Shown here: positions 3,385 through 52,982 of the stretch, one piece after another
Position numbering within the stretch: the stretch's first letter is position 1
Layout: the number at the start of each line of letters is the position of its first letter
Translations under genes and position numbers: made by a program
Notes under the pieces: model-generated
Database searches by the model: none
What the model was told of the DNA's origin: nothing
Seen by the model: only the letters and a program-made list of their open reading frames with translations
DNA from: Shigella phage 2019SD1
DNA: 53,145 bases
Sequence record: MT360681
Direction: 5' to 3' (one strand)

Positions 3385-4069
3385 TTAAGCCGATGGCGGC
3401 AAGCGGCAAGGCTTACGGTGTTGCAATTCGATCCCACTTCCAGACGACTTCGGCTGACGGTCGAATGATTTATGAATCTGGCAGCGGAATCAACGTAATG
3501 ACTGAGGGCGTGTTTGGATGCGTTACGGTCAGGTTTCTGACACTTCAGCTTATAATATTGATGGCGCTTGTGTTCTTGAGAATGCAGCAGGCAACCAGAA
3601 CAAAAACATTTTTGTTGGTGTTGCAGTCCAGCATGGCGGCGTTGATGAAGGCAAAACAAAGATTTTGGCTAAAGACGCTTCCGCGCCAGCGTTCGGCGCT
3701 ACAATCAAACTTTCTGATGATGGTCAGGTTGATACCGCGTCTGGCACTATCGAAACCAACTGGATCGCGACTGGTGATTTCACCGAGTTTCAAGACTTGA
3801 AGCTGGTAGAGGTTCAGGTGCAAAAGTTCCGGCAGTTTCAGCAGGTTAATAAATATGGCGCTCACTTGGCTAAAGACGCTTCCGCGCCAGCGTTCGGCGC
3901 TACAATCAAACTTTCTGATGATGGTCAGGTTGATACCGCGTCTGGCACTATCGAAACCAACTGGATCGCGACTGGTGATTTCACCGAGTTTCAAGACTTG
4001 AAGCTGGTAGAGGTTCAGGTGCAAAAGTTCCGGCAGTTTCAGCAGGTTAATAAATATGGCGCTCACTGA
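3369..4069 (+). CDS. Head-associated protein (hypothetical; possibly decoration protein); frame change near 3515 and tandem ~214-bp duplication at C-terminus
   Basis: Two overlapping ORFs 3369-3800 and 3518-4069 that read as one protein if a 1-bp indel is assumed; 3662-3876 repeated at 3877-4069. Confidence 0.3.
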
Positions 4070-6125: not shown

Positions 6126-6569
6126 ATGGTTGATGAATTTTTCACTGACGCAGAAATCACGCAGCAAATCGTGAAATTGGCGCCACCGATGAAGCAGATT
6201 GATCCAGATTTAATGGAGGCATGGATTGATCTTGCAAAGGAATTTGTTTGCAAGAAGCGGTTTAAAGAATCATATCCCAAAGCGGTTGCTCTTTATACGT
6301 TGCACCTTATGACGCTTGACGGAGCGATGAAGCAAGAAGGGAAAGCGGTTGATGAATTTTTCACTGACGCAGAAATCACGCAGCAAATCGTGAAATTGGC
6401 GCCACCGATGAAGCAGATTGATCCAGATTTAATGGAGGCATGGATTGATCTTGCAAAGGAATTTGTTTGCAAGAAGCGGTTTAAAGAATCATATCCCAAA
6501 GCGGTTGCTCTTTATACGTTGCACCTTATGACGCTTGACGGAGCGATGAAGCAAGAAGGGAAAGCGTAG
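6126..6569 (+). CDS. Hypothetical head-tail connector-like protein; exact tandem 219-bp duplication (6129-6347 and 6348-6566)
   Basis: ORF with 73-aa unit repeated twice in frame. Confidence 0.3.
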
Positions 6570-9011: not shown

Positions 9012-9032
9012 CTTTTAACAAAAAGTGCTATC
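9012..9032 (-). promoter_or_regulatory. Conserved promoter-like motif copy, leftward orientation
   Basis: CTTTTAACAAAAAGTGCTATC. Confidence 0.35.
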
Positions 9033-9632: not shown

Positions 9633-12286
9633 CGCTTGGGGTTGATGTATCTCAACTCAACAATGCTGTAAAGTCTTTGCAGCAATTCAAAAAGGCAAAC
9701 GACGACGCAAAGGGAAGCGTTGAGAACTTTGTTGATTCAGAGGTTGTTGCAAGGCAAAGAGCTAAACAATTGGCTGAGGAATTGGCGAAGCAGAAACAGG
9801 AATTTAAAGCAATTCAGTCTGCAATAGATCCAACAGCCAGCAAGATGGATAAGTTGCGTCAGGCTGCGACACAGCTTGATGCACTATGGAAAAAGGAATT
9901 GTGCCGGATGATACATTCTTTGAATCCGGATGATACATTCTTTGAATTAGGTTCAATTCTTGAGACACAGCAAAACAAGCTGATCGCAACGAAAAAGGCG
10001 CTAACAGAAGAAGGCCGAGCGGCGATTGAGGAAGCAAAGAATAAAGCGGGGCAGAGGCTGAGGCCAGAAAGTTCATTGCGGCATTACAGGCACAAGCAGA
10101 CGCAGCGGAAAAACAAAATCAGAGCTTGTAGAAATGAGAGCCGCACAACTTGGAGTAGAGCCGCACAACTTGGAGTTAGTGCTGAGGCAGCGCCATTTAT
10201 TGCAAAAATGAAGGAGCAGGAAAAACAAGCCTCAAAACTTGGCGTTTCTATGGGGCAGTACAAGCAAGCAATGGCGCAATTACCAATGCAGATCACTGAC
10301 GTTGTTACTTCTCTTGCTTCAGGAATGCCAGTATGGATGGTCGCAATCCAGCAGGGTGGACAGATCAAGGACTCATTCGGTGGTGTTGCGAATACGTTCA
10401 AAGCACTAATGACATTTGTCACGCCGTTAAGTGTAGGAATGACGGCGCTGACTGGTGCTCTTGGTTATGCTGCATATAATGCATACAAAACAAATGCACA
10501 ACTGAAGGAGATCACAAAACCGTTCAGGGGTAACTGGTCTTTCTGGTCAGAACAATACGCAGGCTTGACGCTTGGGGTTGATGTATCTCAACTCAACAAT
10601 GCTGTAAAGTCTTTGCAGCAATTCAAAAAGGCAAACGACGACGCAAAGGGAAGCGTTGAGAACTTTGTTGATTCAGAGGTTGTTGCAAGGCAAAGAGCTA
10701 AACAATTGGCTGAGGAATTGGCGAAGCAGAAACAGGAATTTAAAGCAATTCAGTCTGCAATAGATCCAACAGCCAGCAAGATGGATAAGTTGCGTCAGGC
10801 TGCGACACAGCTTGATGCACTATGGAAAAAGGAATTGTGCCGGATGATACATTCTTTGAATCTGCAATTTGCGAAGAACACCTATGAGGATATAGGAAAG
10901 ATCGTAAAAGATGCGAATAAGGATATGGCGGAACGAGCAGCACGCATCGACAGAGAAAACCTTTCCTTAAACAGAGTTCGAGCGGCGCAAGAGGCTTTAA
11001 ACAAAGCCATAGAGGATCAGAAGAACGTAGCAAGGACAGCAGACGAAGAGTTGAAAAACGAGCGGCTGAGAACGTTGAGTTCAGGCGAAAAGAGCTTGAA
11101 GAGGCGAAGAAGGCGCAGCAGCAAAGGAGAAAGTTGGCGGAGTTGTAAAAGCACCAACAGAGCAGCTGCAAAAGAAAAGGCCGAGATAGGCGATCAGATT
11201 GTTTTGCAACAGAGAAAGAACAAGCAATACCGGACGGGCTTAAATTCATTCAGCAAACTTCAGATGCCATTGATGCTAAACTTGCGACAGTCTGGAGCTA
11301 CAGATATGCAAATCAAGCGAGAGCTTGAGTTGAAGAAGTTGCGAACTGATTATGTTGCTGGCGGGGTAGTATCGACGATGAAATTTATCAGCAGATGGAA
11401 GCAAAGCGATATGTACGGCAACGTGCAAGATATTGCAAGCGAGGCGCTCAACGGTCTAACCAACCAAATGGCTACATTCCTTGCAACAGGCAAGGCGAAC
11501 TTTAAGAGCTTCGCAACGTCAATCATCCAAATGATTATCCAGATGATCACGAAGATGGTTATCTTTAATGCCATATCTGGTGCGATTGGCGGTGACACTT
11601 GGACGATTGGAAGCCTTCTTAAAATGTTGGATTTGCAACTGGTGGATACACTGGCGACGGCGGGAAGTATGAGCCAGCAGGTGTTGTCCATAAAGGCGAG
11701 TTTGTCAACGAAGGAGGCCACGAAGCGGATCGGAGTTGGAAATCTTTACAAAATGATGCGCGGTTATGCAAATGGCGGCGTTGTTGGTGGCACTTCATAC
11801 ACTGGCGGCGGAATTTCATCAGGAGCAACAAACCTTAATATTGGTGGGATTAGCGTTGATATTAACAACGGAAACGATCCAAAAGGGTTGGAGACTGGCG
11901 TAAAAATGATTTTCACTGATATGATTAAGCGTTCCTGTACGCAGGGTGGGGAAGTTTACGAATTTGTTATGTCTAAGCGGGGTGATAGTGAAACTACGAA
12001 GGAGGCCACGAAGCGGATCGGAGTTGGAAATCTTTACAAAATGATGCGCGGTTATGCAAATGGCGGCGTTGTTGGTGGCACTTCATACACTGGCGGCGGA
12101 ATTTCATCAGGAGCAACAAACCTTAATATTGGTGGGATTAGCGTTGATATTAACAACGGAAACGATCCAAAAGGGTTGGAGACTGGCGTAAAAATGATTT
12201 TCACTGATATGATTAAGCGTTCCTGTACGCAGGGTGGGGAAGTTTACGAATTTGTTATGTCTAAGCGGGGTGATAGTGAAACTTGA
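9608..12286 (+). CDS. Tail tape measure protein; contains displaced duplicate (9612-9925 = 10548-10862), tandem 288-bp C-terminal duplication (11708-11995, 11996-12283) and short tandem repeats near 9900 and 10140
   Basis: 892-aa ORF with hydrophobic segment ..[21 protein letters not shown].. typical of tape measure proteins; position after chaperone genes. Confidence 0.7.
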
Positions 12287-15150: not shown

Positions 15151-18100
15151 GTGGCTGAAAATATGATAACGGGCAGTAAGGGTGGATCATCAAAACCTTA
15201 TGTTCCGAAAGAGATGGAAGATAACCTGATCTCAATCAACAAAATCAAAATCCTTCTTGCCGTTTCCGATGGCGAGTGCGATCCAAATTTTACACTTCGC
15301 GATCTGTATCTTGATGATGTTCCGGTAATTGCAGACGACGGAACTGTTAACTACCGTGGTGTGAAAGCTGAATTTCGACACGGAACACAAACGCAAGATT
15401 ACATCCGGGGTTTACTGACACATCAAGCGAAGACGCTGGCGCGTGACATTACGACGACAAATCCTTATGTAATTTCTGTAACCAACAAAACATTATCGGC
15501 TATCAGAATAAAAATTCTAATGCCAACAGGCATTAAGCAAGAGGATAACGGCGATCTTGTAGGTGTTAAGGTCACTTATGCTGTTGATATGGCTGTTGAC
15601 GGAGACTCTTACAAAGAAGTATTGATAGACACCATCGAAGGTAAAACGCGTTCCGGTTACGACAGAAGTCGAAGGATTGACCTTCCGGCATTTAATGATC
15701 GCGTATTGCTTAGGGTTAGAAGGGTTACGGCAGACAGCACATCATCTCGCGTTACTGATCTGATTAAGCTACAAAGTTACGCTGAGGTTATTGATGCAAA
15801 ATTCCGTTACCCTCTGACTGGTCTTGTATACGTTGAATTTGACAGTGAGTTGTTCCTAACCAGATCCACGCTGGCGCGTGACATTACGACGACAAATCCT
15901 TATGTAATTTCTGTAACCAACAAAACATTATCGGCTATCAGAATAAAAATTCTAATGCCAACAGGCATTAAGCAAGAGGATAACGGCGATCTTGTAGGTG
16001 TTAAGGTCACTTATGCTGTTGATATGGCTGTTGACGGAGACTCTTACAAAGAAGTATTGATAGACACCATCGAAGGTAAAACGCGTTCCGGTTACGACAG
16101 AAGTCGAAGGATTGACCTTCCGGCATTTAATGATCGCGTATTGCTTAGGGTTAGAAGGGTTACGGCAGACAGCACATCATCTCGCGTTACTGATCTGATT
16201 AAGCTACAAAGTTACGCTGAGGTTATTGATGCAAAATTCCGTTACCCTCTGACTGGTCTTGTATACGTTGAATTTGACAGTGAGTTGTTCCTAACCAGAT
16301 CCCGAGAGTATCACGGTTCATGGGATGGTACTTTCAAGAAAGCGTGGTCGAACAATCCGGCGTGGGTTCTTTATGACATTATCACAAACCAGCGATACGG
16401 ATTAGATCAGCGAGAACTTGGCGTGCAGGTTGACAAATGGAGTCTTTACGAAGCGGCGCAATACTGCGATCAGAAAGTGCCTGACGGAAAAGGCGGCACA
16501 GAGCCGCGTTATCTATGCGACGTTGTTATTCAAAGCCAGATTGAGGCTTATCAGCTTATTCGTGATATTTGCTCAATCTTCCGAGGCATGAGCTTTTGGA
16601 ATGGGGAGAGCCTGTCAATCGTCATTGATAAGCCGCGCGATCCGTCGTACATCTTCACCAATGACAACGTTGTTGATGGCGATTTTCAGTACACAACAGC
16701 AAGCGAAAAGAGCATGTACACGCAGTGCAACGTGACGTTCGACGACGAACAAAACATGTATCAACAGGACGTGGAGGGCGTATTCGACACTGAGGCAGCA
16801 TTGCGCTTTGGATACAATCCAACAAGCATAACAGCTATCGGATGTACACGCAGGAGTGAGGCTAATCGGCGCGGTAGATGGATACTAAAACCAACTTGCG
16901 CAGCACTACGGGATACTAAAACCAACTTGCGCAGCACTACGGTAAACTTTGCTACTGGACTGGAAGGCATGATCCCATCAATAGGTGATGTTATCGCGGT
17001 GTCAGATAACTTTTACAGCAGCAACCTGAAATTAAACCTTTCAGGGCGCGTGATGGAAGTTTCCGGCTTGCAGGTGTTCGTCCCGTTTAAGATTGACGCG
17101 CGACCGGTGATTTCATTATCATCAACAAGCCTGACGGAAAGCCAGTTAAGCGCACAATCTCAAAGGGTTGTGTCGTGGGATAAAGTACCTTACGCATCGC
17201 TGTATGAAATGCAATGGCGAAAAGGTGATGGCAACTGGCTGAATACACCACAGACCGCAAACAAAGAAATTGAGGTTGAAGGTATTTATTCAGGCAACTA
17301 CCGGCCAAACACTTCATTGTCGGATGCGGTTAAGTTAACTGGCGCGCCGGGCTCCCCACCTTACCAGTCAGCGAAGCTGTCACAATTCTTGACCGGGCGA
17401 TGTAGAACCGGAAGCGGAAACAGATCTCACCCTTACCGGCCAAACACTTCATTGTCGGATGCGGTTAAGTTAACTGGCGCGCCGGGCTCCCCACCTTACC
17501 AGTCAGCGAAGCTGTCACAATTCTTGACCGGGCGATGTAGAACCGGAAGCGGAAACAGATCTCACCCTTACCGGTTTGGCATTCGTGTTAAGTGGGGTAT
17601 GCCAGAAGGGAGCGGAGACACGGCATACATTGAGCTTCACCAGTCGCCAGATGGAACAGCGGAAAACTCAAGCCTGTTAACGCTGATACCATACCCACAA
17701 TATGAATATTGGCACGGTACGCTTCCGGCTGGTCATGTTGTATGGTATCGAATCAGAAGCGTGGACAGGATCGGCAATGTTTCCGGTTGGACGGATTTTG
17801 TTCGCGGCATGGCTTCAGATGATGTTGAGGCTGTTTTAGGCAATATTCTTGATAAGATTTTTGATACAGAAGCAGGAAAGGATCTGAAAGAGAATGCCAT
17901 TGATAGCGCAAACAAAATCAAGGATCAGGCGCAAAGCATCATTCAAAACGCATTGGCGAATGATGCAGACGTTAGGATCATGAGGAAGGAAAACGGAAAA
18001 CGCAAAGCCGAGTTTAGGCAATCAATCCAATTGATCGCAAGTGAAACTGAGGCGCGCGTTACCGCAATGACGCAACTCAAGGCTGAATTTGACGAGGAAA

Positions 18101-19563: not shown

Positions 19564-19828
19564 TCAGTTGCCAGTCCGGTGTTCCTTTCGGAATGTGGGA
19601 TTACCACTCTTTGGTTTTGATTGATACCTTGCCGCTAAAGTTGCCCGGTCGTCATCGGATGAAAGACCTTTGAATCGCATATCGATTTCTCCAGCCGGAA
19701 CCTTCTTACCATCAACGAATAGCATCATACAAGATCCGTAAGTGTAAGTAACACAGTCGCCATTTTAAGATTCTGAGCACAACCAGTCATGGCAATGGCT
19801 GCAATCAAAACGGGGATTAACTTTTTCA
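19564..19828 (-). CDS. Small lipoprotein, candidate superinfection-exclusion protein (Cor/Llp-like); one internal frame change
   Basis: TAAGGAGA RBS, ATG at 19828 (minus), N-terminus MKKLIPVLIAAIAMTGC with lipobox; promoter motif copy 19886-19904 upstream; located next to tail tip gene. Confidence 0.45.
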
Positions 19829-19885
19829 TGTTGGTGTCTCCTTAGTTGTTGTTAGTTGTAACTATACATGATCTTACGGTAGGCG

Positions 19886-19904
19886 TTTAGCAAAAGTGCT
19901 ATTC
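19886..19904 (-). promoter_or_regulatory. Conserved promoter-like motif copy upstream of lipoprotein gene
   Basis: Minus-strand reading AATAGCACTTTTGCTAAAC followed ~20 nt later by TATAGT and RBS. Confidence 0.5.
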
Positions 19905-19929
19905 TGTTCTTTTGTTCCCCAGTGTTCTC

Positions 19930-20130
19930 AAATCTGCGGAGGCTTAAATTTAGCTCAAAAAGTGAACAGCAATAGAGCGCTATACATACATATAAATATA
20001 TATACATACATATAAATCAATAAGTTAGTAGTATATATATTTATATTTGTTTTTCTTGTTATCTATGTTTTGTGTGATTTTATGTGTCTGGTAATTTTTA
20101 TGTGGTTGTGTATTCGAGGCTAAAGATTAC
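19930..20130. promoter_or_regulatory. AT-rich repetitive intergenic region at strand switch (candidate promoter cluster or origin-like region)
   Basis: Repeats ATACATACATATAAATA and TTATGTG/GTGGTTGTGT units; no ORF. Confidence 0.3.
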
Positions 20131-20135
20131 GATGC

Positions 20136-21314
20136 GTGTCAGTGTTTGTGTTAACTAGCCAAACGGCGCTTGCTGCAAAACTGAACTCATTTGGCCTGAA
20201 AGGTACAACCGGAAAGACTTATCCAGATCTTATCAAAATGATGGTTGATTGCGGAGAAGACCTTAACGTTATGTGGTTGATTGAGATGATCGCAGAAAGT
20301 CAAGCGGGGCCGATGGGGTTAAGTTCTATATATCTATATCCGGCGCAAATAGAGGAACAAGAGAACAAAAAGACAACACTGATATTTATCAATCACTTAC
20401 ACGTAAGTTTTGTTATCCAAGTTGGTGAGAACGTTGTTGGAACAGAAAAACAAAATAACTATAATAAGTTTATGGCGTACACCAGCGAAGAAATGAGCAA
20501 CGAGCTTTATCACGATCCAGAAGCGTGGACGGCTGATTATGTTAGCGGCTCAAGCCCGGCAGAGATTTACAGCACATGCCCGGCAGCGTGGAAGTTCAAG
20601 CCGCGCGACGATAAGAGCAAAGCGCTAGTTTTCGGTACGCAGTCGCATACCAACTTTGAAAGCAAGGAGCTTTTCGAAAAACCTATCGACGTGCGCCAGC
20701 GACAGAAGACTTTAAGGATCCGTGGCAATGCGCCGGTTCTTGAATCCATACCTGAACATAACGCATGTATGAATAGCAAGACAGCACAACGTGAATTATC
20801 GCTATTCGGTGAAATTAACGGCGTAAAAGTCAAAGTTCGATGCGATCACGTTGACGTAACAAAGAACGTCAACGCAACGCTGATTGATGGTTACGATGAA
20901 AAAGGCCAGCCGATTTGCAGAGATATTATTTATCCAGAGGCCATTGTGATCACAGACTACAAAACCACAATGAGCGCTAATCCGGCTGAGTTTATGCGCC
21001 CGGCTTACAATCACGGCTATTATTTAAAAATGGCGTTGCAATGTGATTTATTCAGGAAAGCATATCCAGAAGAAAAGCGACCTATAGTTGTGCGCCTGTT
21101 AGCGCAAGAGAAGAAAGAGCCTTATTTGCCGTTGGCTTTCCGCATGAACAACGAGCAATTGAAGATCGGGCGCATTCAGTACATGAGCGTGATTAACCAG
21201 TTTGCCATGTGCCAGCAACATGACGTTTGGCCTTCTTATTCAAACGGTGAGCCGGAGGTTTGCCTTGACACTCCTGATTGGGTGCGCCGCCAGTTTAAGC
21301 AATATCTTATTTAA
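20136..21314 (+). CDS. PD-(D/E)xK family nuclease, putative recombination exonuclease (start uncertain, possibly near 20460)
   Basis: Motifs ..VRCDHVDV.. and ..IVITDYKTT.. suggest a PD-(D/E)xK catalytic core; adjacent to Erf-like and SSB genes. Confidence 0.3.
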   Translation: MSVFVLTSQTALAAKLNSFGLKGTTGKTYPDLIKMMVDCGEDLNVMWLIEMIAESQAGPMGLSSIYLYPAQIEEQENKKTTLIFINHLHVSFVIQVGENVVGTEKQNNYNKFMAYTSEEMSNELYHDPEAWTADYVSGSSPAEIYSTCPAAWKFKPRDDKSKALVFGTQSHTNFESKELFEKPIDVRQRQKTLRIRGNAPVLESIPEHNACMNSKTAQRELSLFGEINGVKVKVRCDHVDVTKNVNATLIDGYDEKGQPICRDIIYPEAIVITDYKTTMSANPAEFMRPAYNHGYYLKMALQCDLFRKAYPEEKRPIVVRLLAQEKKEPYLPLAFRMNNEQLKIGRIQYMSVINQFAMCQQHDVWPSYSNGEPEVCLDTPDWVRRQFKQYLI

Positions 21315-25156: not shown

Positions 25157-25337
25157 AAAACAACGACGCAGGATGGTCGCCAATCGTTTGTGGAGGTAGT
25201 CAGTCGCAATGGGGTTATGCTCTAAAATCAGCTTTCGGAACTATTGCTAATAACCAAGCTTGGCCTGATACAGCTATACACCACTCATTCGCCCCGGTGC
25301 AACAATCTTTTTCATTGATGCACCGTTTCAAGCGGCT

Positions 25338-27494
25338 GTGATTGGTGATAACGCTCATAACAGGATGTTTTATTTTCTCATACCGGGACGTCGGGTTGGT
25401 CCTTTTGATAGTGTTGGTGCTAATACGATTATTTACTCGCCAGACGGATCTTATAGGTTGGTTATCAGAGATGACGGATTACTAGTTTATCAGAAAGGTG
25501 ACGGAACTGAAACCAAGCCATTTGAAATTGCGACTGGTGGGACTGGGGCAACTGATGCAGCAGGTGCTCGCAATAATCTTGGGCTTGGCAGCTATACACC
25601 ACTCATTCGCCCCGGTGCAACAATCTTTTTCATTGATGCACCGTTTCAAGCGGCTGTGATTGGTGATAACGCTCATAACAGGATGTTTTATTTTCTCATA
25701 CCGGGACGTCGGGTTGGTCCTTTTGATAGTGTTGGTGCTAATACGATTATTTACTCGCCAGACGGATCTTATAGGTTGGTTATCAGAGATGACGGATTAC
25801 TAGTTTATCAGAAAGGTGACGGAACTGAAACCAAGCCATTTGAAATTGCGACTGGTGGGACTGGGGCAACTGATGCAGCAGGTGCTCGCAATAATCTTGG
25901 GCTTGGGACTGGGCAAGACGTTCAATTTAAGAGCATTACGGCTACAGACGGCGATATTCTAGTTCCGCAAACTCACGTTGTAGGATGTAAAACTAATACT
26001 GGCGGTAACAAAAATATCTATCTGACGAACTTACCGGAGAATCAACTTCAGGTGGGTGGGACTGGCGCTCAATCTGCAAATAACGCCGCTGAAACTGCAA
26101 AAACGGCGCTGTTACGGCGCGAAATGAGGCTGAGGAATTTGCTAAAAGCCTTAATGCTGAAAATCTACCATGTATTGCTGGGCGACGCTCAAGGTTATAT
26201 CACTGGATACGATACGAAATGGCGAGAGCAATTAACACTCATTCGCCCCGGTGCAACAATCTTTTTCATTGATGCACCGTTTCAAGCGGCTGTGATCAGT
26301 GAAGTTATCAGCGATACACAAATCCGCGCTATCACAACTGGCGGCGCTGAAATTGGGCGGAGCAACTACATTATTTTGCTGCATGACTCAATCACTGTTG
26401 ATGGCCCGGCGCAAGATGTTGCGGAAACTCTGCGTTACTATCAAAGCAAAGAAACTCAGATCGAGGAAGCTATTGAATTTTTCAAAAACTTTGATCTAAA
26501 ACAGTTGCAAGATCTGGCTAATCAGGTTAAAGGTGATGCAGAGAAAACAGCCAATGATCGTGCTGCTACTGAACAACTGAAAAACGACACTCAACATATA
26601 AAGGATTCTGCTGTTGCTGAAACAAACCAGATTAAAGCAGACACTAACGCAATCAAGGCGCAAACACAACAGATTAAAGATTCTGCGATAACGGAAGTTA
26701 ATTCCGCACGCGATCAAGGTGTTTTAGCTGTAAACCAGACTAAAGATCAGGCTGTTTCAGAAATGAATCAGATAAAGGGTGATGTTTCGAATCTGAAAAC
26801 GAAGCTATTTCAGCAAGGGATTCAGCCCAGCAATACATGGCAATGGACGCTCAAGGTTATATCACTGGATACGATACGAAATGGCGAGAGCAATATCAGT
26901 GAAGTTATCAGCGATACACAAATCCGCGCTATCACAACTGGCGGCGCTGAAATTGGGCGGAGCAACTACATTATTTTGCTGCATGACTCAATCACTGTTG
27001 ATGGCCCGGCGCAAGATGTTGCGGAAACTCTGCGTTACTATCAAAGCAAAGAAACTCAGATCGAGGAAGCTATTGAATTTTTCAAAAACTTTGATCTAAA
27101 ACAGTTGCAAGATCTGGCTAATCAGGTTAAAGGTGATGCAGAGAAAACAGCCAATGATCGTGCTGCTACTGAACAACTGAAAAACGACACTCAACATATA
27201 AAGGATTCTGCTGTTGCTGAAACAAACCAGATTAAAGCAGACACTAACGCAATCAAGGCGCAAACACAACAGATTAAAGATTCTGCGATAACGGAAGTTA
27301 ATTCCGCACGCGATCAAGGTGTTTTAGCTGTAAACCAGACTAAAGATCAGGCTGTTTCAGAAATGAATCAGATAAAGGGTGATGTTTCGAATCTGAAAAC
27401 GAAGCTATTTCAGCAAGGGATTCAGCCCAGCAATACACATGCGTTTTCTCCCGTGTTGCATGTTAATGTCAATGCAGATAATAGCATTTGCTAA
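25338..27494 (+). CDS. Long tail fibre protein; 318-bp tandem duplication (25271-25588, 25589-25906), 600-bp tandem duplication (26297-26838 and 26897-27438) and frame disruption near 26100
   Basis: N-terminal ..GGTGATDAAGARNNLGLG.. motif common to phage tail fibres; long coiled-coil-like repeats rich in A/T/N/Q/K. Confidence 0.6.
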   Translation: MIGDNAHNRMFYFLIPGRRVGPFDSVGANTIIYSPDGSYRLVIRDDGLLVYQKGDGTETKPFEIATGGTGATDAAGARNNLGLGSYTPLIRPGATIFFIDAPFQAAVIGDNAHNRMFYFLIPGRRVGPFDSVGANTIIYSPDGSYRLVIRDDGLLVYQKGDGTETKPFEIATGGTGATDAAGARNNLGLGTGQDVQFKSITATDGDILVPQTHVVGCKTNTGGNKNIYLTNLPENQLQVGGTGAQSANNAAETAKTALLRREMRLRNLLKALMLKIYHVLLGDAQGYITGYDTKWREQLTLIRPGATIFFIDAPFQAAVISEVISDTQIRAITTGGAEIGRSNYIILLHDSITVDGPAQDVAETLRYYQSKETQIEEAIEFFKNFDLKQLQDLANQVKGDAEKTANDRAATEQLKNDTQHIKDSAVAETNQIKADTNAIKAQTQQIKDSAITEVNSARDQGVLAVNQTKDQAVSEMNQIKGDVSNLKTKLFQQGIQPSNTWQWTLKVISLDTIRNGESNISEVISDTQIRAITTGGAEIGRSNYIILLHDSITVDGPAQDVAETLRYYQSKETQIEEAIEFFKNFDLKQLQDLANQVKGDAEKTANDRAATEQLKNDTQHIKDSAVAETNQIKADTNAIKAQTQQIKDSAITEVNSARDQGVLAVNQTKDQAVSEMNQIKGDVSNLKTKLFQQGIQPSNTHAFSPVLHVNVNADNSIC

Positions 27495-28645: not shown

Positions 28646-29158
28646 ATGCCGGGCATTGTTTTTCTTATTGAGTATTACGGCAGCGTGTCAGCAATGTCAA
28701 GCCGTGCTTTTAGTCCAGCGCGAAAGAACAGCGAATCGCGGTATCAACTGGCAAGATTGACAAACGCACAATCAATGGCAATAACGGAACTCGACGGGGT
28801 AAAGATAAGAAAAGCGCAAGCGCCCTACAGGATACTATGTTTTAAAAGAGCAAAGCGTCTTAACGTTAGCCAGCAAACTGTAAATCAGTGGCGTGTTCGC
28901 GGTATGATTTCAGCCGCTGGCGCTCAAAAGGTGCATAACGATTACAAGAAATATGGTTGTCAAGGCTATCGCGCGTCATTCTGCCGTCCAGACCTGCGAT
29001 TTGATTCCAATGGAAAACCGCTCACAAAGAGATGTGATAAGCGTGAAATGTTGCGAGTAGTAAGAATGTCAGATTATGAACCCGGCGGATTCCTGTATAA
29101 ACCTGAAAGCACTAATTGCCATTATTCATTCTCCAATAGCATTTTTGTTAAACAATGA
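28646..29158 (+). CDS. Hypothetical DNA-binding protein (HTH-like)
   Basis: Segment ..RLNVSQQTVNQWRVRGMIS.. resembles a helix-turn-helix. Confidence 0.3.
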   Translation: MPGIVFLIEYYGSVSAMSSRAFSPARKNSESRYQLARLTNAQSMAITELDGVKIRKAQAPYRILCFKRAKRLNVSQQTVNQWRVRGMISAAGAQKVHNDYKKYGCQGYRASFCRPDLRFDSNGKPLTKRCDKREMLRVVRMSDYEPGGFLYKPESTNCHYSFSNSIFVKQ

Positions 29159-33806: not shown

Positions 33807-34997
33807 ATGAGATGGACAATCACCACTCGCGACAAAGAACAGCTAGAAGCATTAATGCAGGCCGCTATGGATGCATTTAGCGAAGAAGTTCCGCGACTTG
33901 ATCCGCAACCGGAATCACAAAAGGATTATAGCGAGACGTTATCACTGTATCCGATCTTTGATATGCACCGGGCGCAATGGCGCATAAGCATGAATGCGGC
34001 GAGAACTGGGATACAGCAACAGCAGAGCGCGAATAATTTCATTGATTATTCCATCCAGTGCGCGCCGGATAGCGAAAAGGCTGTTTTGCTGATTGGTGGT
34101 GACATGCTGCATAGTGACGGCACGGAAGCGGTGACACCTGCAAGCGGTCACGTATTGGATCAAGATAGTCGATACGCAAAACTTGTTTATGTTGCCATCC
34201 GGTCAGTGCGTCGAGCAATAGCAAAGCTGTTATCAAAACATAAAACGAGATGGACAATCACCACTCGCGACAAAGAACAGCTAGAAGCATTAATGCAGGC
34301 CGCTATGGATGCATTTAGCGAAGAAGTTCCGCGACTTGATCCGCAACCGGAATCACAAAAGGATTATAGCGAGACGTTATCACTGTATCCGATCTTTGAT
34401 ATGCACCGGGCGCAATGGCGCATAAGCATGAATGCGGCGAGAACTGGGATACAGCAACAGCAGAGCGCGAATAATTTCATTGATTATTCCATCCAGTGCG
34501 CGCCGGATAGCGAAAAGGCTGTTTTGCTGATTGGTGGTGACATGCTGCATAGTGACGGCACGGAAGCGGTGACACCTGCAAGCGGTCACGTATTGGATCA
34601 AGATAGTCGATACGCAAAACTTGTTTATGTTGCCATCCGGTCAGTGCGTCGAGCAATAGCAAAGCTGTTATCAAAACATAAAACGATCTGGTTGCGCGCA
34701 GCAATGGCGGCAGCATATGAGAATGAGCCGCGAGTGCATGTTGATGTTTCTCCGCGAGTAGTTCATCACACGCAATATGGCAAAACATTCCCGCATACCA
34801 TCATCTGGTTGCGCGCAGCAATGGCGGCAGCATATGAGAATGAGCCGCGAGTGCATGTTGATGTTTCTCCGCGAGTAGTTCATCACACGCAATATGGCAA
34901 AACATTCCCGCATACCATCATGGGCACACTATCCGCAAACCTGAAACATTGGCGGCAAAGATGCATACGCTGCGCGCGAGTACATAGCACTATATAA
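33807..34997 (+). CDS. Hypothetical protein; exact tandem 438-bp duplication (33810-34247, 34248-34685) and 117-bp tandem duplication (34686-34802, 34803-34919)
   Basis: 396-aa ORF composed largely of repeated units. Confidence 0.3.
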   Translation: MRWTITTRDKEQLEALMQAAMDAFSEEVPRLDPQPESQKDYSETLSLYPIFDMHRAQWRISMNAARTGIQQQQSANNFIDYSIQCAPDSEKAVLLIGGDMLHSDGTEAVTPASGHVLDQDSRYAKLVYVAIRSVRRAIAKLLSKHKTRWTITTRDKEQLEALMQAAMDAFSEEVPRLDPQPESQKDYSETLSLYPIFDMHRAQWRISMNAARTGIQQQQSANNFIDYSIQCAPDSEKAVLLIGGDMLHSDGTEAVTPASGHVLDQDSRYAKLVYVAIRSVRRAIAKLLSKHKTIWLRAAMAAAYENEPRVHVDVSPRVVHHTQYGKTFPHTIIWLRAAMAAAYENEPRVHVDVSPRVVHHTQYGKTFPHTIMGTLSANLKHWRQRCIRCARVHSTI

Positions 34998-36324: not shown

Positions 36325-36978
36325 ATGGTTGCATGCCATTTTTTCTTTCTTCCTCCAGCACACCCCTATTCCATTGTCATATATAAATATTTTATTCCAA
36401 TCGATTGGAATAAAATATTTATATATGACAATGGAATATTGTGGGAAATGCACAATGGAAAAATACCAGAAGGAATGGAGATAGATCATATATGGCACAA
36501 TAGGTGGGATAACAGGATTGAAAATTTAAGGCTTGCATCAAGATTAGAGAACAGCAAAAACGTATCTCTACTAAAAAGAAATAAATCTGGTAGGGTTGGG
36601 GTGTGCTGGAGGAAGAAAGAAAGGTGGAGAAACAGAAGGGGAAAAGCAAAGCACGGAAGCGTTGCTGGATGTGTAGATAAAAATGGCTATGTAAGAATAA
36701 GGTATAATGGTGTATTGCTTTTGGCACATAGGATAATATGGGAAATGCACAATGGAAAAATACCAGAAGGAATGGAGATAGATCATATATGGCACAATAG
36801 GTGGGATAACAGGATTGAAAATTTAAGGCTTGCATCAAGATTAGAGAACAGCAAAAACGTATCTCTACTAAAAAGAAATAAATCTGGTAGGGTTGGGGTG
36901 TGCTGGAGGAAGAAAGAAAAAATGGCATGCAACCATATACATATCTTTTCCTTAGAGCTTTTATTTGTTGTCTATTAA
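36325..36978 (+). CDS. HNH homing endonuclease with AP2-like DNA-binding domain; internal ~180-297-bp duplication (36442-36620 approx = 36739-36917)
   Basis: ..NGYVRIRYNGVLLLAHRIIWEMHNGKIPEGMEIDHIWHNRWDNRIENLRLASRLENSKN.. classic HNH motif; ..KSGRVGVCWRKK.. AP2-like. Confidence 0.65.
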   Translation: MVACHFFFLPPAHPYSIVIYKYFIPIDWNKIFIYDNGILWEMHNGKIPEGMEIDHIWHNRWDNRIENLRLASRLENSKNVSLLKRNKSGRVGVCWRKKERWRNRRGKAKHGSVAGCVDKNGYVRIRYNGVLLLAHRIIWEMHNGKIPEGMEIDHIWHNRWDNRIENLRLASRLENSKNVSLLKRNKSGRVGVCWRKKEKMACNHIHIFSLELLFVVY

Positions 36979-40817: not shown

Positions 40818-40837
40818 GTTTAGCAATTCGTGCTATC
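40818..40837 (-). promoter_or_regulatory. Conserved promoter-like motif copy (CGAATTG variant)
   Basis: Minus-strand reading GATAGCACGAATTGCTAAAC followed by TATAGT. Confidence 0.45.
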
Positions 40838-41412: not shown

Positions 41413-41551
41413 TCTTTAAATCCTCGTTCGTTGTCGATGCGCTTAATATACCAATCAGAGGCGCATCGGTTTTAACAAAAGTGCTATTAGTCCAGAATTC
41501 GATTTCGCGCTCGCCAGTTAACGGATCTTTAATCCAGAATCCGAGCGGCAT
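41413..41551 (-). CDS. Small hypothetical ORF reading through the promoter motif (stop not resolved)
   Basis: Strong GAAGGAGAAATAAAG RBS plus ATG at 41551 (minus). Confidence 0.2.
41468..41489 (-). promoter_or_regulatory. Conserved promoter-like motif copy
   Basis: Minus-strand reading TAATAGCACTTTTGTTAAAACC then 7-bp stem GATGCGC..GCGCATC enclosing TATATT. Confidence 0.55.
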
Positions 41552-41564
41552 CTTTATTTCTCCT

Positions 41565-41808
41565 TCATTGCTGATCGCGTTTAACTGCCCACAGAACATC
41601 GCAGGACTCGTTAATGAATTTTGCCATGCGTTTATCATCACCAGCAGGAATTAGCGCGTTAAACTCGCGTTTGCTACTGAACACAGTCACTTTATGGAAT
41701 GATGCGAACGGCATCGACGGGAACTCTACTGTTTGCGTCAAGATCCGCAATCCCATCTTTTGGCCCCACCGGCCTCTGCAACTTCAAAATCCACTTCATT
41801 AATCATTT
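41565..41808 (-). CDS. Hypothetical protein (frame disruption near start)
   Basis: Minus-strand ORF 41565-41756 with in-context ATG at about 41808 in a neighbouring frame. Confidence 0.25.
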
Positions 41809-42075
41809 CTTGATCTCCTCAGCAATAAACTTCAGTACTTTGCGCAAAAACACTTCGTTATTGATGGTCGCTGGCAATTCCTCTTTCACTTCTTGCGGCA
41901 GGTAAACGTTGTTATGCCGTGTTAAGCAATCGTAGTTGATACGATAAGAGCAAAGCCACTCGCAATCGTTATCCGCTTCCCAAATGCAGAGTTGCAGAAC
42001 ATCACCGAAATCCTCAACAGTCAGATCCAGACCGTGACGTTTTGCAAAGTTGAAAGTGGTTTTGCTGATGTTCAT
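41803..42075 (-). CDS. Hypothetical protein (90 aa), first gene of minus-strand early block
   Basis: AGGAGATAGCA plus ATG (minus) downstream of promoter motif 42137-42157. Confidence 0.45.
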   Translation of the reverse strand: MNISKTTFNFAKRHGLDLTVEDFGDVLQLCIWEADNDCEWLCSYRINYDCLTRHNNVYLPQEVKEELPATINNEVFLRKVLKFIAEEIKK

Positions 42076-42136
42076 TGCTATCTCCTGATGGGTATCTCGT
42101 TTCGATGTGTCTAATGTACCCGATCAGGGCAATTCA

Positions 42137-42157
42137 GTTTTAACAAAAGTGCTATTT
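42137..42157 (-). promoter_or_regulatory. Conserved promoter-like motif copy
   Basis: Minus-strand reading AAATAGCACTTTTGTTAAAAC then imperfect stem enclosing TACATT, RBS AGGAGA, ATG. Confidence 0.55.
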
Positions 42158-42229
42158 GCTGACTGGTCATTATTCCAACTATTCCATTAATCAGGAATAA
42201 CAGGAATAAATCATTCGCGATCACCGGAT

Positions 42230-42740
42230 TGTGAGAACTTGAGTTTGATCAATTTTAATCAAGTGATTAACTTTTTGTGTGGAGGGATAGAGAAATGCGG
42301 TCCTCTTGCGCCCTTTCCGGCAATCCCGGCGCGCACATCTGTTATCTTCTGTTATCGCTGTTATGCGTGTTATTCCGGCGTGGAATCGCATAACAAAAAT
42401 AACAAGATAAATCCATATAACATACTAAAAATAAGGATTATTTATTTATATGTATCTATAAATTACTATCTGTTATGTGTGTTGTGTGGTCATATTGATG
42501 TCTGATGTATTCTTGGTGATTGTGTGTGGTTGTGTGTTGGCAGGTATGTATATATGGGGTGGGGGCGAATCCGCGCATTTTTAGATAACACGCCAAAATA
42601 ACATTGATTTATAAGGAGAAAAACGAGAATCTTGTTGTGTTCTGAAAAGGCAACATTGAAAAACTGCCAATAACAATAAAAACATTTGACGCGCCAGAAT
42701 GGTAAATGATAATGCAGCCACTGAATCACGAGAGGGTATA
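42230..42740. promoter_or_regulatory. Divergent intergenic control region between minus-strand and plus-strand early gene blocks; AT-rich with GTGT-rich repeats
   Basis: No ORFs; repeats similar in style to 19930-20130 (TTATGTGTG, GTGGTTGTGTGTTGG). Confidence 0.4.
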
Positions 42741-42744
42741 AAGC

Positions 42745-43085
42745 ATGAGTGAATCTGTATTTACAAATGAGCTTCGCAAGGTTGCGACTGCGCTCGCATC
42801 TGGAACACATGAATCTATTCAGATACCTGAAAGATGGGTAAGGCAGCACCGGAGGGTAAGAAGTCAGCCAGCAATGCCGGATCATATCTGCGTCAGATTA
42901 TGGGGCGCGTTCCAGAAGTGGCGGAGAAGGGTAGAGTTTCAGTATCAAAGAAACCTTACGGCCCTGATAGCGAATATTTCGGCGAAAATTACTTTGATGT
43001 GGCGATTGTTAGTGCGCCTAATCGCAGGGTGTACAACAAGGCGGCGCTTGAGAAGGCTGTAGCGAAAGCAAAACGCCGTTGCTGA
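42745..43085 (+). CDS. Hypothetical early protein (frame change near 42835)
   Basis: GAGAGGGTATAAAGC plus ATG; two overlapping ORFs that join into one with a 1-bp correction. Confidence 0.35.
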
Positions 43086-43223
43086 GTCAATGCTTAAAGT
43101 TTCACCAAGCCCGGCGAACTACTCGCCAGATGAATATGAAACACTTGCTAAGGCGATTGCAGACTTTCACGCGATCATTAAAGAAACATATCTTAACGAT
43201 GAGGAGAATTTGACTCTGACCGG

Positions 43224-43631: not shown

Positions 43632-44774
43632 TTGTGGTGCTTAAGCGTGGATAACATCAAGTATCCGATCACGTTCCACACGGTTGGTAACTCAACTATT
43701 CGATTCACATCTCGCGACAATGGCGTTTATAGCGACGGTCAGAAATCAGAGTTGAAAGTTGATTTCTTTGTCAATGGTCACAACAAATTCAATCCGCACA
43801 ACGAAAAAGATAAGGTGTACTACGTGGAAGATATTACAAAACACTTGTTTGGCGAAACTCCATTCGGCGGCGGGAAGACGTCAATTCAACAAATCATTGA
43901 CGATCAGATCCGCAAGGCAGCCGTTGAAATGAAAGCGCCCGGAGGCTGGCGTATTGATAAGGGCGCCTTTACCATTCAAGAAATCGTAACGCAGGGCGCG
44001 ATTGAAGACATGCCGCTTGGCGCTTCAATCATCGGCATCAAAGACGACAACGGCGACTGGCAGGATGTTTCATTCCTGTTAAGCAGATCGAAGTACACGA
44101 CGACCTGTTTTGCCTCCCGGCGCATCATGGCAGCTACAAGGGCAAAGCCTTTGCCGCAGAGCTTGACATCAAGCGCGGAACGATTGTTAAGTGGAAGGCA
44201 AAAGTGTAAAGATAACATCAAGTATCCGATCACGTTCCACACGGTTGGTAACTCAACTATTCGATTCACATCTCGCGACAATGGCGTTTATAGCGACGGT
44301 CAGAAATCAGAGTTGAAAGTTGATTTCTTTGTCAATGGTCACAACAAATTCAATCCGCACAACGAAAAAGATAAGGTGTACTACGTGGAAGATATTACAA
44401 AACACTTGTTTGGCGAAACTCCATTCGGCGGCGGGAAGACGTCAATTCAACAAATCATTGACGATCAGATCCGCAAGGCAGCCGTTGAAATGAAAGCGCC
44501 CGGAGGCTGGCGTATTGATAAGGGCGCCTTTACCATTCAAGAAATCGTAACGCAGGGCGCGATTGAAGACATGCCGCTTGGCGCTTCAATCATCGGCATC
44601 AAAGACGACAACGGCGACTGGCAGGATGTTTCATTCCTGTTAAGCAGATCGAAGTACACGACGACCTGTTTTGCCTCCCGGCGCATCATGGCAGCTACAA
44701 GGGCAAAGCCTTTGCCGCAGAGCTTGACATCAAGCGCGGAACGATTGTTAAGTGGAAGGCAAAAGTGTAAATAG
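43632..44774 (+). CDS. Hypothetical early protein; exact tandem ~561-bp duplication (43650-44210, 44211-44771); C-terminus frame-disrupted
   Basis: 380-aa ORF consisting of two identical 187-aa units. Confidence 0.35.
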   Translation: MWCLSVDNIKYPITFHTVGNSTIRFTSRDNGVYSDGQKSELKVDFFVNGHNKFNPHNEKDKVYYVEDITKHLFGETPFGGGKTSIQQIIDDQIRKAAVEMKAPGGWRIDKGAFTIQEIVTQGAIEDMPLGASIIGIKDDNGDWQDVSFLLSRSKYTTTCFASRRIMAATRAKPLPQSLTSSAERLLSGRQKCKDNIKYPITFHTVGNSTIRFTSRDNGVYSDGQKSELKVDFFVNGHNKFNPHNEKDKVYYVEDITKHLFGETPFGGGKTSIQQIIDDQIRKAAVEMKAPGGWRIDKGAFTIQEIVTQGAIEDMPLGASIIGIKDDNGDWQDVSFLLSRSKYTTTCFASRRIMAATRAKPLPQSLTSSAERLLSGRQKCK

Positions 44775-44790
44775 CACGAATTGTTAAAAC
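44769..44790 (+). promoter_or_regulatory. Conserved promoter-like motif copy (CGAATTG variant)
   Basis: AAATAGCACGAATTGTTAAAAC followed by GGCC-GTATAAT-GGCC. Confidence 0.55.
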
Positions 44791-46397: not shown

Positions 46398-46946
46398 ATG
46401 TTTGATATTGCATTCTCAATGCTTGGCGTTTACCGATATGACGAGTTCATTGATCTGTATTTTGATATTGCATTCTCAATGCTTGGCGTTTACCGATATG
46501 ACGAGTTCATTGATCTGTATAACGACCGCGAGCAGAAAGAAAAGCCTCAAGCAATCTTGCAAGGAAAGTCGCCGCGCCAGTTCATGATCTGGATTAGCGA
46601 AGAAGTCATGAAGCCAGCTTTTGGCGAGCAGTATTTCGGAAATCGCATGGTTGAGCAAGTGCACGAGATGTACAGAGATTTGGCTGTTGTAATTAGTGAT
46701 GGCGGATTCACTGAAGAAATCAAGCCGCTCATTAAGGCAGGCCATGAAGTTCACATTTGCAGACTGCATCGCGAAGGTTTTACGTTTGATGGCGATTCGC
46801 GAAACTATATTGACCTGAGCGGATACCATCACCGAGTAAAACATTACGACTTCACAATGATTGATGGCGATCCAGAAAAACTGTTGACGAGATCATCAAA
46901 ACTATCCAGTGGAAACACATTAAGATCAAATAGCACGAATTGCTAA
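46398..46946 (+). CDS. Hypothetical protein; 63-bp tandem duplication at N-terminus (46398-46460, 46461-46523)
   Basis: ORF; stop embedded in promoter motif 46928-46949. Confidence 0.3.
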   Translation: MFDIAFSMLGVYRYDEFIDLYFDIAFSMLGVYRYDEFIDLYNDREQKEKPQAILQGKSPRQFMIWISEEVMKPAFGEQYFGNRMVEQVHEMYRDLAVVISDGGFTEEIKPLIKAGHEVHICRLHREGFTFDGDSRNYIDLSGYHHRVKHYDFTMIDGDPEKLLTRSSKLSSGNTLRSNSTNC

Positions 46947-46949
46947 AAC
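46928..46949 (+). promoter_or_regulatory. Conserved promoter-like motif copy (CGAATTG variant)
   Basis: AAATAGCACGAATTGCTAAAAC followed by GGTT-GCGGTATAGT-AACC. Confidence 0.55.
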
Positions 46950-47299: not shown

Positions 47300-47319
47300 A
47301 TAGCACGAATTGCCAAAAG
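47298..47319 (+). promoter_or_regulatory. Conserved promoter-like motif copy (CGAATTG variant)
   Basis: AAATAGCACGAATTGCCAAAAG followed by TATAAT. Confidence 0.5.
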
Positions 47320-51589: not shown

Positions 51590-52982
51590 AATGAGCGAAT
51601 ATTCATTCGAAAAGATGATCCGCATTTGGTTTCAACTTCTCGGGGCAAAGGTTCTTAGGAAACTGGCATTTCAGTTACCTATGCAGCGAAGTGCAGGAGC
51701 TATGGCCGGAAAGCTGGCAAAGGCGAGCGCAAAGGACTTGATTGTAACCGATGTCGGCAAGGTTAAATTGCAAGTTAACTCGCGTTCTATCGGTGGTCAG
51801 GTTACTGGTCTGCGTGGCGGCTACATGGATGATGGATTTACTGGTATGCTGGTTCTTGATGATCCAGACAAGCCGGATGACATGCTTTCTAAGGTGAAGC
51901 GCGAAGCCGGACACATGCGCCTAAAGAACACGGTGCGATCACGTCGAATGAAGGACACAACGCCAATCGTAATGGTCCAGCAACGGCTACACGTCAATGA
52001 TTCAACATGGTTCATGACAAACGGCGGCATGGGCGGCATCCAGTTTAAGGTGGTCAGTATTCCGGCGCTCGTTACTAAGGAATATCGCGAAACGCTTCCT
52101 GATTGGTTAAAGCCTGAGTTTGATCGCGATGTTTTATCCAGTAAGCCAGTAATGATTGATGGTGTTGCTCATTATTCATTCTGGCCTGCTAAGAAAGCGC
52201 GGAGGAATTACTTGCACTTCGAAATGCTGATCCGTACACGTTCGCCAGTCAGTATCAGCAACAGCCTGTTGCGCTTGGCGGTAACGTGTTTAAAACGGAG
52301 TGGTTTCAGTATTACGGCAGCAGCGAGAAATGCACGCTACCAAAACCGGATCGCTTTGAGTATACATTTATCACGGTTGATACCGCGCAGAAAACGGGTG
52401 AGCTTAACGACTACTCCGTATAAAGATCGCGTTTACTTCATTGATGGTGTTCGCGGAAAATGGGAAGCACCAGACCTTGAAACTAATTTTGTTGCGTTCG
52501 TTAATCAGTGCTGGAAGCGTAATAAAGAATGCGGAACGTTGCGAAGGATTCATGTTGAAGATAAGTCATCTGGCACTGGCTTGATTCAGAGCGCAGCGAA
52601 AAAATTATATAAAGATCGCGTTTACTTCATTGATGGTGTTCGCGGAAAATGGGAAGCACCAGACGAAACTAATTTTGTTGCGTTCGTTAATCAGTGCTGG
52701 AAGCGTAATAAAGAATGCGGAACGTTGCGAAGGATTCATGTTGAAGATAAGTCATCTGGCACTGGCTTGATTCAGAGCGCAGCGAAAAATTATGATCAAG
52801 ATCAATCCCGTTCAGCGAGACTGGCTGAGATACTCGCTGAAGTTGCGGCGTTCACATTCGATGATTCGCATCCTCATGATGATATTGTTGATAACATCAT
52901 TGATGCTGTTAACATTGAAATGAACATGGCAGATGATCCGGTAGGAAGAATGAAAAAATTGGCAGGTTTGCGGAACAAATAA
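51590..52982 (+). CDS. Terminase large subunit (N-terminal region uncertain; internal frame change near 52195; 180-bp tandem duplication 52425-52610 approx)
   Basis: ..ADPYTFASQYQQQPVALGGNVFKTEWFQYYG.. and C-terminal ..FTFDDSHPHDDIVDNIIDAVN.. typical of terminase nuclease domain; Walker A-like ..SRGKGS.. only visible in a shifted frame near 51600. Confidence 0.55.

Follow-up and report, generated by a model that had tools for sequence, protein, structure and literature searches.

A duplicated non-coding module of T1-like phages with origin-like anatomy: two AT-rich regions of Shigella phage 2019SD1 and their relatives

The two regions in the 2019SD1 record

The present study concerns two non-coding gaps in the genome of Shigella phage 2019SD1 (sequence record MT360681; 53,145 nucleotides, the whole stretch being referred to here as the window): region 1, located in the cor-recE gap, and region 2, between small early genes and a gene for a DUF7174 protein. 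As described below, profile searches show them to be paralogous copies of one module of ~400-450 bp, non-coding and conserved across the family Drexlerviridae. The window itself was recognized by megablast as a T1-like coliphage of the genus Hanrivervirus (Drexlerviridae, Tempevirinae), its top matches being PGN590, pSf-1 and ESh4. The first-pass annotation, made from the letters alone, had drawn attention to an AT-rich context with GT-rich repeats at 19930-20130 and 42400-42560, and the strings it quoted are indeed present there; both regions lie, as it held, in non-coding DNA between divergently transcribed blocks. They are the two long divergent gaps, although not the sole strand switches, since pSf-1 has three divergent and three convergent junctions. 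The accompanying statement that no open reading frames (ORFs) occur there holds for conserved ones, whereas two mechanically called ORFs, 42239-42505 (+) and 42490-42885 (-), overlap region 2.

The composition of both regions is extreme, well outside what chance would produce. Over the 53 kb, the GC content falls below 25% in only three 80-nt windows, i.e. at 19943-20115 (minimum 13.8%), 42378-42506 (15%) and 36360-36465 (22.5%), the former two being the lowest-GC stretches of the window. The T+G content exceeds 80% in only two 60-nt stretches, 20040-20116 and 42469-42570, both on the + strand and both directly 3' (right) of their AT block. The two regions are also the two least stable 100-bp duplex windows (z = 5.6 and 4.6 for regions 1 and 2, respectively); TATATA and ATACATA are heavily enriched in them, and the DNA of the cores is rich in TA steps, not in phased A-tracts. 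Concerning the third AT-rich locus (36360-36465), it adjoins a 400-nt bin (36401-36800) with a GC skew of +0.48 after one of -0.21, and it sits where the match to pSf-1 is poor. The GC skew tracks gene orientation in the window and is uninformative on origins.

Region 1 begins to the right of the gene for a cor-like superinfection-exclusion lipoprotein (19600-19830, - strand, ATG at 19830), which is collinear with pSf-1 gp84 and with the Cor of slyngel and grams. The first element of the gap is a leftward T1-family promoter-like repeat (19885-19903, - strand), reading AATAGCACTTTTGCTAAAC, a variant of the 21-nt repeat of phage TLS that matches the region-2 copy at 17 of 18 positions. It is followed by the left iterons TGTTCT, TGTTCC and TGTTCT (19905-19928, +), aligned with those of region 2 and TLS in the joint alignment, and by the (TA)n-rich core (19981-20050), the least stable 100-bp stretch of the window. 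This core contains an array of TATACATACATATAAATATA with a 10-bp period (19981-20020), in which ATACATACATATAAATA is found at 19983 and, with one change, again at 20003, as well as a perfect 16-nt inverted repeat (19990-20005/20031-20046), alternating pyrimidine-purine runs of 14 and 19 nt, and a match to the consensus of the integration host factor (IHF) at 20015-20027. The native part of the TG-rich tract, with more than 80% T+G, covers 20051-20110 (+), TTATGTG and GTGGTTGTGT being located at 20079-20112; the tract continues at 20139-20153, as identified by comparison with ESh4 and pSf-1.

The interruption of the tract is due to a misassembled insert (20111-20324, +), which does not belong to the element and consists of the recE fragments 20111-20138 and 20154-20324 around the 15 nt of the TG tract at 20139-20153. 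The right edge of region 1 in the window (20110/20111) is an assembly junction rather than a biological boundary. The displaced right half follows at 20325-20462 (+); it contains TATATATCTATATCCGGCG, the inverted iterons GGAAC and AGAACA (~20354-20367), an IHF match at 20387 and more iterons. The blocks thus occur in the order A-E-D-B-C-F in the window, as compared with A-B-C-D-E-F in pSf-1, ESh4, slyngel, W011D, JLBYU01 and BabyEgg, in all six of which the cor-recE gap is one unbroken stretch of ~500 bp. About 60 bp with the sigma-70 promoter, ribosome-binding site (RBS) and ATG of recE are absent from region 1 of the window; in pSf-1, TTGACT-16-TACAAT is present there. A sigma-70-like site in the window, TTGGAA-17-TATAAT (20437-20465) before an ATG at 20473, was rejected, its TATAAT having been made by the junction of the ~60-bp deletion.

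These rearrangements are not confined to region 1. The GenBank record is flagged UNVERIFIED_ASMBLY (its SD1_32 corresponds exactly to the ORF 28646-29158 of the window), and 121 of the 124 adjacent pairs of high-scoring segments are non-collinear with pSf-1, including 18 strand flips; judged from these alignments, the flag is deserved and the gene order is scrambled. Internal transpositions, inversions or duplications were seen in nearly every gene of 2019SD1. The Tandem Repeats Finder revealed ~20 two-copy tandem duplications within coding regions, 117-438 bp long and nearly all 100% identical, e.g. at 3665-4067, 6128-6566, 11708-12283, 15433-16302, 25271-25906, 33809-34686 and 52419-52803. 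All the periods of these long duplications are multiples of 3, those of the shorter ones (17, 20, 22, 31 and 34 bp) are not, and the in-frame bias is not explained by plain assembly error. The record is accordingly unfit for gene-level analysis, and because of its scrambled state the biology was read from natural relatives, the window serving for coordinates only. It should be pointed out that region 2 (41545-43205) is intact and collinear with pSf-1. Other records raise doubts of a different kind: ~20 entries MG0656xx, deposited as 'Campylobacter phage A1xx' with C. jejuni as the host and marked UNVERIFIED, are Hanriverviruses sharing 88-93% identity with this coliphage-type genome; the names and hosts given look wrong, possibly owing to contaminants.

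With a record flagged for misassembly and an artificial junction at the right edge of region 1, it might be asked whether both regions are functionless low-complexity DNA or an assembly artefact. This is highly improbable. Relatives with sound assemblies, drawn from four genera and three subfamilies, have the same blocks in collinear positions, conserved to about the same degree as neighbouring coding sequence; on these comparisons the artefact reading is refuted for the cores and holds only for 20111-20324.

Region 2 starts, on its left, with the first leftward small early gene (41803-42075, - strand), a homologue of pSf-1 gp31, followed by the leftward T1-family promoter-like repeat (42137-42156, -), which reads AATAGCACTTTTGTTAAAAC and corresponds to TLS DR18. 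The next ~180 bp (42160-42337) form a segment without counterpart in region 1, homologous to the starts of the T1, TLS and Rtp records; it contains an inverted repeat, TTATTCC..GGAATAA (42170-42209), with tandem CAGGAATAA, as well as a GC-rich stretch, repeats of the GATTG type and, at 42257, a match to the IHF consensus. The left iteron arrays (42338-42422) consist of four direct TGTTAT copies at 9-10 bp spacing (42340-42373) and three inverted ATAACA copies (42390-42422). They are succeeded by the AT-rich core (42395-42470; GC minimum 15%, z = 4.6), which aligns with that of region 1, and by the TG-rich tract (42469-42570, +; up to 85% T+G), with TGTTATGTGTGTTGTGTGG at 42471, GATTGTGTGTGGTTGTGTGTTGG at 42518 and GTATGTATATATGGGGTGGGGG at its end. 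The right inverted iterons ATAACA (42584-42675) are located at 42585, 42598 and 42670, and altogether 12 of the 62 TGTTAT/ATAACA copies of the window fall within the 669 bp of region 2. The rightward sigma-70 early promoter together with the 5' untranslated region and RBS occupies 42686-42744 (+), the promoter TTGACG-16-GATAAT itself (42686-42713) being equivalent to TLS P01. The first rightward gene (42745-43062, ATG at 42745) encodes a DUF7174 protein, like T1 ST77, TLS gp01 and Rtp1; the T1 member gave a weak, sub-threshold AcrF2-like match.

Two possible small genes in region 2 deserve mention. The small coding sequence annotated there in pSf-1 (gp32) was rejected, being interrupted by an in-frame stop codon in the window. 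The GC-rich stretch 42296-42409 could be read as a 37-codon ORF with a GGAGGG RBS, pSf-1 having an annotated 41-codon coding sequence in another frame; for lack of a conserved frame, it probably does not encode a protein.

The region-2-specific segment also bears on packaging. In T1, TLS and Rtp alike, the first position of the sequence record falls within the counterpart of region 2, and the T1 record annotates 1-2800 as a terminal repeat. In TLS, the pac end was placed by a submolar pac-HindIII fragment of ~6 kb; its exact position was chosen for its likeness to the P22 pac (AGATTT) and was not a measured one (PMC11447400). With the TLS HindIII site at 5876, the resolution of this mapping is a few hundred bp, and the AT core lies ~200 bp away. 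The AT/TG blocks themselves could therefore be imagined as pac sites, where terminase would attach and start headful packaging with its first cut. Such a role is improbable: region 1 has the same core, yet both classical and TLS mapping give a single pac end, and the record starts align near window position 42250, ~150 bp left of the AT block, in the segment that region 1 lacks. Because of that alignment, the segment 42160-42337, not the shared AT/TG block, may reasonably be taken as a candidate pac region. Of the pac-like sites proposed in the first-pass annotation for both regions, what survives—on the indirect testimony of record starts and TLS mapping—is one in region 2, outside the AT/TG block.

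One module in two copies across the Drexlerviridae

Compared directly by blastn, regions 1 and 2 of the window share 68% identity over 111 nt, a value too weak on its own in AT-rich DNA, for which reason profile searches and shuffle controls were used. An nhmmer profile built from region 1 of nine phages only finds region 2 in the same orientation over ~330-420 profile positions, with E-values of 2e-23 in TLS, 1.5e-14 in pSf-1, 6.7e-12 in the window and 1e-4 in T1. Conversely, a profile of region 2 recovers region 1 in pSf-1 (8e-10) and TLS (9e-16). In the control, 200 composition-preserving shuffles scored at most 2.2 bits as compared with 49 bits for the real sequence. The direct similarity is higher in Rtp (83% over 123 nt) and in T1 (78% over 88 nt). 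The relationship of the two regions to each other, noticed originally from their shared repeats, is thus confirmed as paralogy.

The module comprises, from left to right, the leftward repeat, iterons, (TA)n core, TG tract, inverted iterons and the sigma-70 early promoter. In the joint alignment, the left iterons are followed by a TCCGGCG-type spacer, and the (TA)n core, in which TATATA, ATAAGGTTA and TATTTATAT are conserved; after the core come the TG tract, GTATGTATATAT, CCGGCG or CGCG, the inverted iterons and more iterons, and the right end is formed by TTGAC (-35) ... (T/G)A(C/T)AAT GCAG. The (TA)n-rich core covers ~70-100 bp. Cross-genus identity is 61-76% along the whole module, the coding sequence of the neighbouring recE reaching 73%. 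A TG-rich tract is found only in Tempevirinae and is missing from T1 and Rtp.

The low stability of the cores is a property of the family as well. In the window, pSf-1, T1, TLS and Rtp, the two least stable 100-bp windows are regions 1 and 2 (z = 4.3-5.9), the third least stable site reaching at most z = 3.6 in T1, TLS, Rtp and pSf-1, or 3.8 with the window included. The GC minimum of the module is 10-16%; no other stretch of T1 or of the window falls as low in GC, and in Rtp the two regions account for two of the three lowest values. The two gaps of T1 also hold 30 of its 44 TATATA hexamers.

Hijacked copies of the module were not found in the E. coli genomes and plasmids searched. Neither the paired cores nor their paralogy nor the iterons are described in the searchable literature, which did not take in the 2004 T1 genome paper; all three are likewise missing from the TLS re-annotation (PMC11447400).

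Promoters, iterons and a candidate regulator

Only three sigma-70 promoters, i.e. P01, P51 and P57, have been recorded in the TLS genome, together with 18 intergenic copies of aaATAGCACnnnTTGnTAAAA, the role of which is listed among the open questions (PMC11447400). P01 forms the right end of region 2 and P51 that of region 1, whereas P57 drives the gene for a helix-turn-helix (HTH) regulator. The leftward motifs of the module probably belong to the same TLS/T1 repeat family: those at 19885-19903 and 42137-42156 are variants of aaATAGCACnnnTTGnTAAAA shorter by one base, with a spacer of 2 nt instead of 3 nt. Both contain ATAGCAC and TTG.TAAA, share the strand of the genes that follow them and precede the start codon by 55-65 nt. 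The canonical TLS-type repeat, ATAGCACnnnTTGnTAAAA, is present elsewhere in the window at 9013-9031 (-), 40818-40836 (-), 44771-44789 (+), 46930-46948 (+) and 47300-47318 (+). The similarity around these copies spans ~65-90 nt (positions 7-89 of the hidden Markov model), so that the repeat unit is longer than the published 21 nt.

No sigma-70 consensus pair (-35/-10 with 16-18 bp spacing) was detected in either AT/TG core. The suggestion of clustered strong promoters in the block itself is thus not supported by promoter prediction; the promoters flank the block instead, the canonical early promoter being located 130-250 bp to its right (42686-42713 in the window, TTGACT-16-TACAAT in region 1 of pSf-1). 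That the block would nevertheless act as strong promoters, or encode a small U/G-rich RNA, finds some encouragement in the many -10-like hexamers of (TA)n and in a weak hairpin with a T-run after the TG tract of Hanrivervirus region 2. The latter, at 42559-42574, was considered as a terminator and rejected, being conserved neither in JK16 nor in TLS and absent from region 1. In addition, the TG tract keeps its composition but varies by indels between genera, with the lowest identity of all module segments (0.61) and a gap fraction of 0.12, among the higher ones, and neither region 2 of the window nor region 1 of pSf-1 had an Rfam 15 match at E <= 1. A promoter or RNA gene within the block is accordingly a poor prospect.

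The iterons are arranged in opposed arrays around the core and their sequence differs by lineage. T1 and Rtp have iterons of the GTTAC type (all six TGTAACA copies of the T1 genome lie within the two regions), TLS has TGTTCAC and GTTCC, and Hanrivervirus TGTTAT and TGTTCT. Three of the five exact matches of the window to the IHF consensus WATCAANNNNTTR are in regions 1 and 2 (20015, 20387 and 42257); the same three are found in pSf-1 and one each in region 1 of Rtp and T1, but none in TLS.

With respect to a protein reading the iterons, the only candidate found is an HTH 'transcriptional regulator' whose gene adjoins the primase gene—pSf-1 gp2, T1 gp23, TLS gp57 and Rtp52—and of which a scrambled copy is present in the window at 28646-29158. 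The predicted structure of this gp23 homologue (pLDDT 86) has an all-alpha HTH core of the Cro type. In Foldseek its top match was Xfaso-1 Cro (E = 6.6e-3), followed by N15 Cro, with none at E <= 0.001; the superposition on Xfaso-1 Cro gave a TM-score of 0.74 when normalized to the 64-residue target and 0.33 for the 157-residue query, with ~30% identity over ~65 residues. Its basic N-terminal tail, DKRTINGNNGTRRGKD, and the C-terminal motif FDxNGKPLxxRC are, moreover, conserved. When its recognition helix was compared with the iterons, all four lineages were found to differ.

Given these promoters, iterons and regulator, the module could be purely a control region of early transcription, with no part in replication. 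The iterons would be operators or activator sites for a phage regulator, such as the Cro-like gp23 homologue, switching off or tuning the two divergent early promoters, and the AT/TG core would be bendable DNA for looping with IHF. Several observations are consistent with this. Two of the three sigma-70 promoters of TLS are right ends of the module, the third one driving the regulator; the promoter is conserved within the duplicated module and the iterons reach its -35; in region 1, the left iterons come directly next to the leftward ATAGCAC motif; the modelled fold of the regulator is of the Cro type; and its sequence varies between lineages, as do the iterons. Other features fit less well. 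The (TA)n core is ~130-250 bp upstream of the sigma-70 promoter and therefore too far for an UP element, and it represents the least stable DNA of every genome, more extreme than the usual promoter-upstream DNA. In TLS, region 1 has no leftward gene or promoter, yet its left iterons have been kept ~330 bp from the nearest promoter. Finally, no iterons were found at the regulator's own promoter region, and the binding of gp23 to the iterons is putative. Pure transcription control is considered possible, though somewhat short of an even chance, and nearly as likely as the origin-like function discussed below.

Origin-like anatomy and what it may mean

The reading preferred here, held tentatively and at less than even odds, is that early transcription on its flanks activates the module as an origin-like unwinding element, its function being deduced from its anatomy. 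A phage DNA-binding protein would occupy both iteron arrays, and bending of the IHF type would bring the two arrays together. Divergent early transcription on both sides could then drive negative supercoiling into the (TA)n core, which would open and allow the phage helicase and the P4-alpha-like primase to be loaded. From such a mechanism there would follow two related initiation sites ~22 kb apart, in the manner of oriL/oriR of SPP1 or ori/crr of P4. This reading is favoured because of the iteron-origin geometry, the homology of the primase to P4 alpha and the left iterons of TLS being far from promoters. Among the features looked for in an origin, a cluster of repeated sites and an adjacent AT-rich unwinding element are both present. 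The replication origin listed among the suggestions of the first-pass annotation is thus compatible with the anatomy, inverted iteron arrays being placed around the least stable DNA in every T1-like genome examined. A more specific version, in which both modules form a dual paralogous origin of the Drexlerviridae and the Cro-like gp23 reads the iterons, shuts the early promoters and licenses initiation, is clearly more doubtful.

A number of points weigh against an origin function. The module is not located beside replication genes, a position that is customary for iteron-type origins without being universal: its neighbours are cor and recE in region 1 and the small early genes and DUF7174 in region 2, whereas the primase, the HTH protein and the helicases are 5-10 kb away; the origins of lambda, P4 and SaPI (Staphylococcus aureus pathogenicity islands), by contrast, adjoin replication genes. 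The sigma-70 early promoter is an integral and conserved part of the module, and with iterons running up to its -35, operators or activator sites fit equally well; the Cro-like fold predicted for the gp23 homologue likewise speaks for a role in transcription control and not in initiation. Between the T1-like primase and P4 alpha, homology is limited to residues 26-262 of the latter, no homologue of the origin-binding domain of alpha being found (tblastn against T1, TLS, pSf-1 and Rtp). The C-terminus of the DUF3987 helicase was considered as an origin-binding domain and rejected, since its sequence, C-terminus included, is 80% conserved and hence too invariant to follow the changes of the iterons; sequence searches of PDB were uninformative on this question. 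There is no DnaA box (<=1 mismatch) in the modules of the window or pSf-1, and GATC is not clustered, its frequency not exceeding the genome average. In the classical view, T1 concatemers arise by recombination, in which case a strong origin might be dispensable. The searchable literature yielded neither replication mapping nor a transcriptome for any T1-like phage.

As to the background, the 2024 re-annotation of TLS states that no origin is known for the T1-like family and that no origin-type repeats were found in TLS (PMC11447400).

One of the closest known systems is the satellite phage P4. According to its annotation, ori and crr are clusters of TGTTCACC octamers in both orientations. The type-1 octamers are bound by the alpha primase-helicase. 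The module resembles this arrangement in having two cis regions with octamer or heptamer iterons in both orientations at a roughly helical spacing, and the TLS iteron TGTTCAC—the 7-mer being present only in TLS—equals 7 of the 8 bases of the type-1 octamer. On the other hand, the iterons of the window are TGTTAT and TGTTCT, not TGTTCACC; no homologue of the alpha helicase or its origin-binding domain was detected in T1, TLS, pSf-1 or Rtp, and the iteron clusters of P4 are not the lowest-GC region of its genome. Homology of the module to P4 ori was tried and rejected (nhmmer E = 0.89, not significant).

Three other systems offer partial parallels. The Bacillus phage SPP1, a pac-type siphovirus, has two related origins, oriL and oriR, ~32 kb apart and composed of initiator boxes with an AT-rich region; the present phages are similar in having two far-apart paralogous sites in a headful-packaging siphovirus, with short repeats beside an easily melted AT-rich segment. 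SPP1 has, however, the initiator G38P with oriL inside the initiator gene, whereas the module is neither in nor beside a replication gene and carries an early promoter. The origins of SaPI and related phage-inducible chromosomal islands (PICI) comprise two iteron sets around an AT-rich stretch of ~80 bp that is melted by Rep, which is matched by the opposed iteron arrays, the AT-rich core of ~70-100 bp and the variation of iterons between lineages seen here; SaPI origins are, in contrast, directly downstream of pri-rep, and the specificity of Rep has been shown experimentally. These likenesses do not make the module a member of the SPP1, P4 or SaPI families of origins. The primary origin of T7 and oriF/oriG of T4 consist of a promoter and an adjacent AT-rich unwinding element, so that, as in the module, transcription is a plausible activator; in T7 and T4, nevertheless, the element is downstream of the promoter and transcribed, while the core of the module is upstream, between diverging promoters.

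On this anatomy, the two modules are the best candidates for the replication origins of T1-like phages. T1 belongs to the classical set of seven T phages, and its relatives are widespread coliphages, met both as laboratory contaminants and as therapy candidates. In each T1-like genome examined, two copies of one module constitute the most meltable DNA and combine lineage-specific iterons with the few host-type promoters, and these two 400-bp pieces offer a concrete target for origin mapping, regulator-binding assays and phage engineering.

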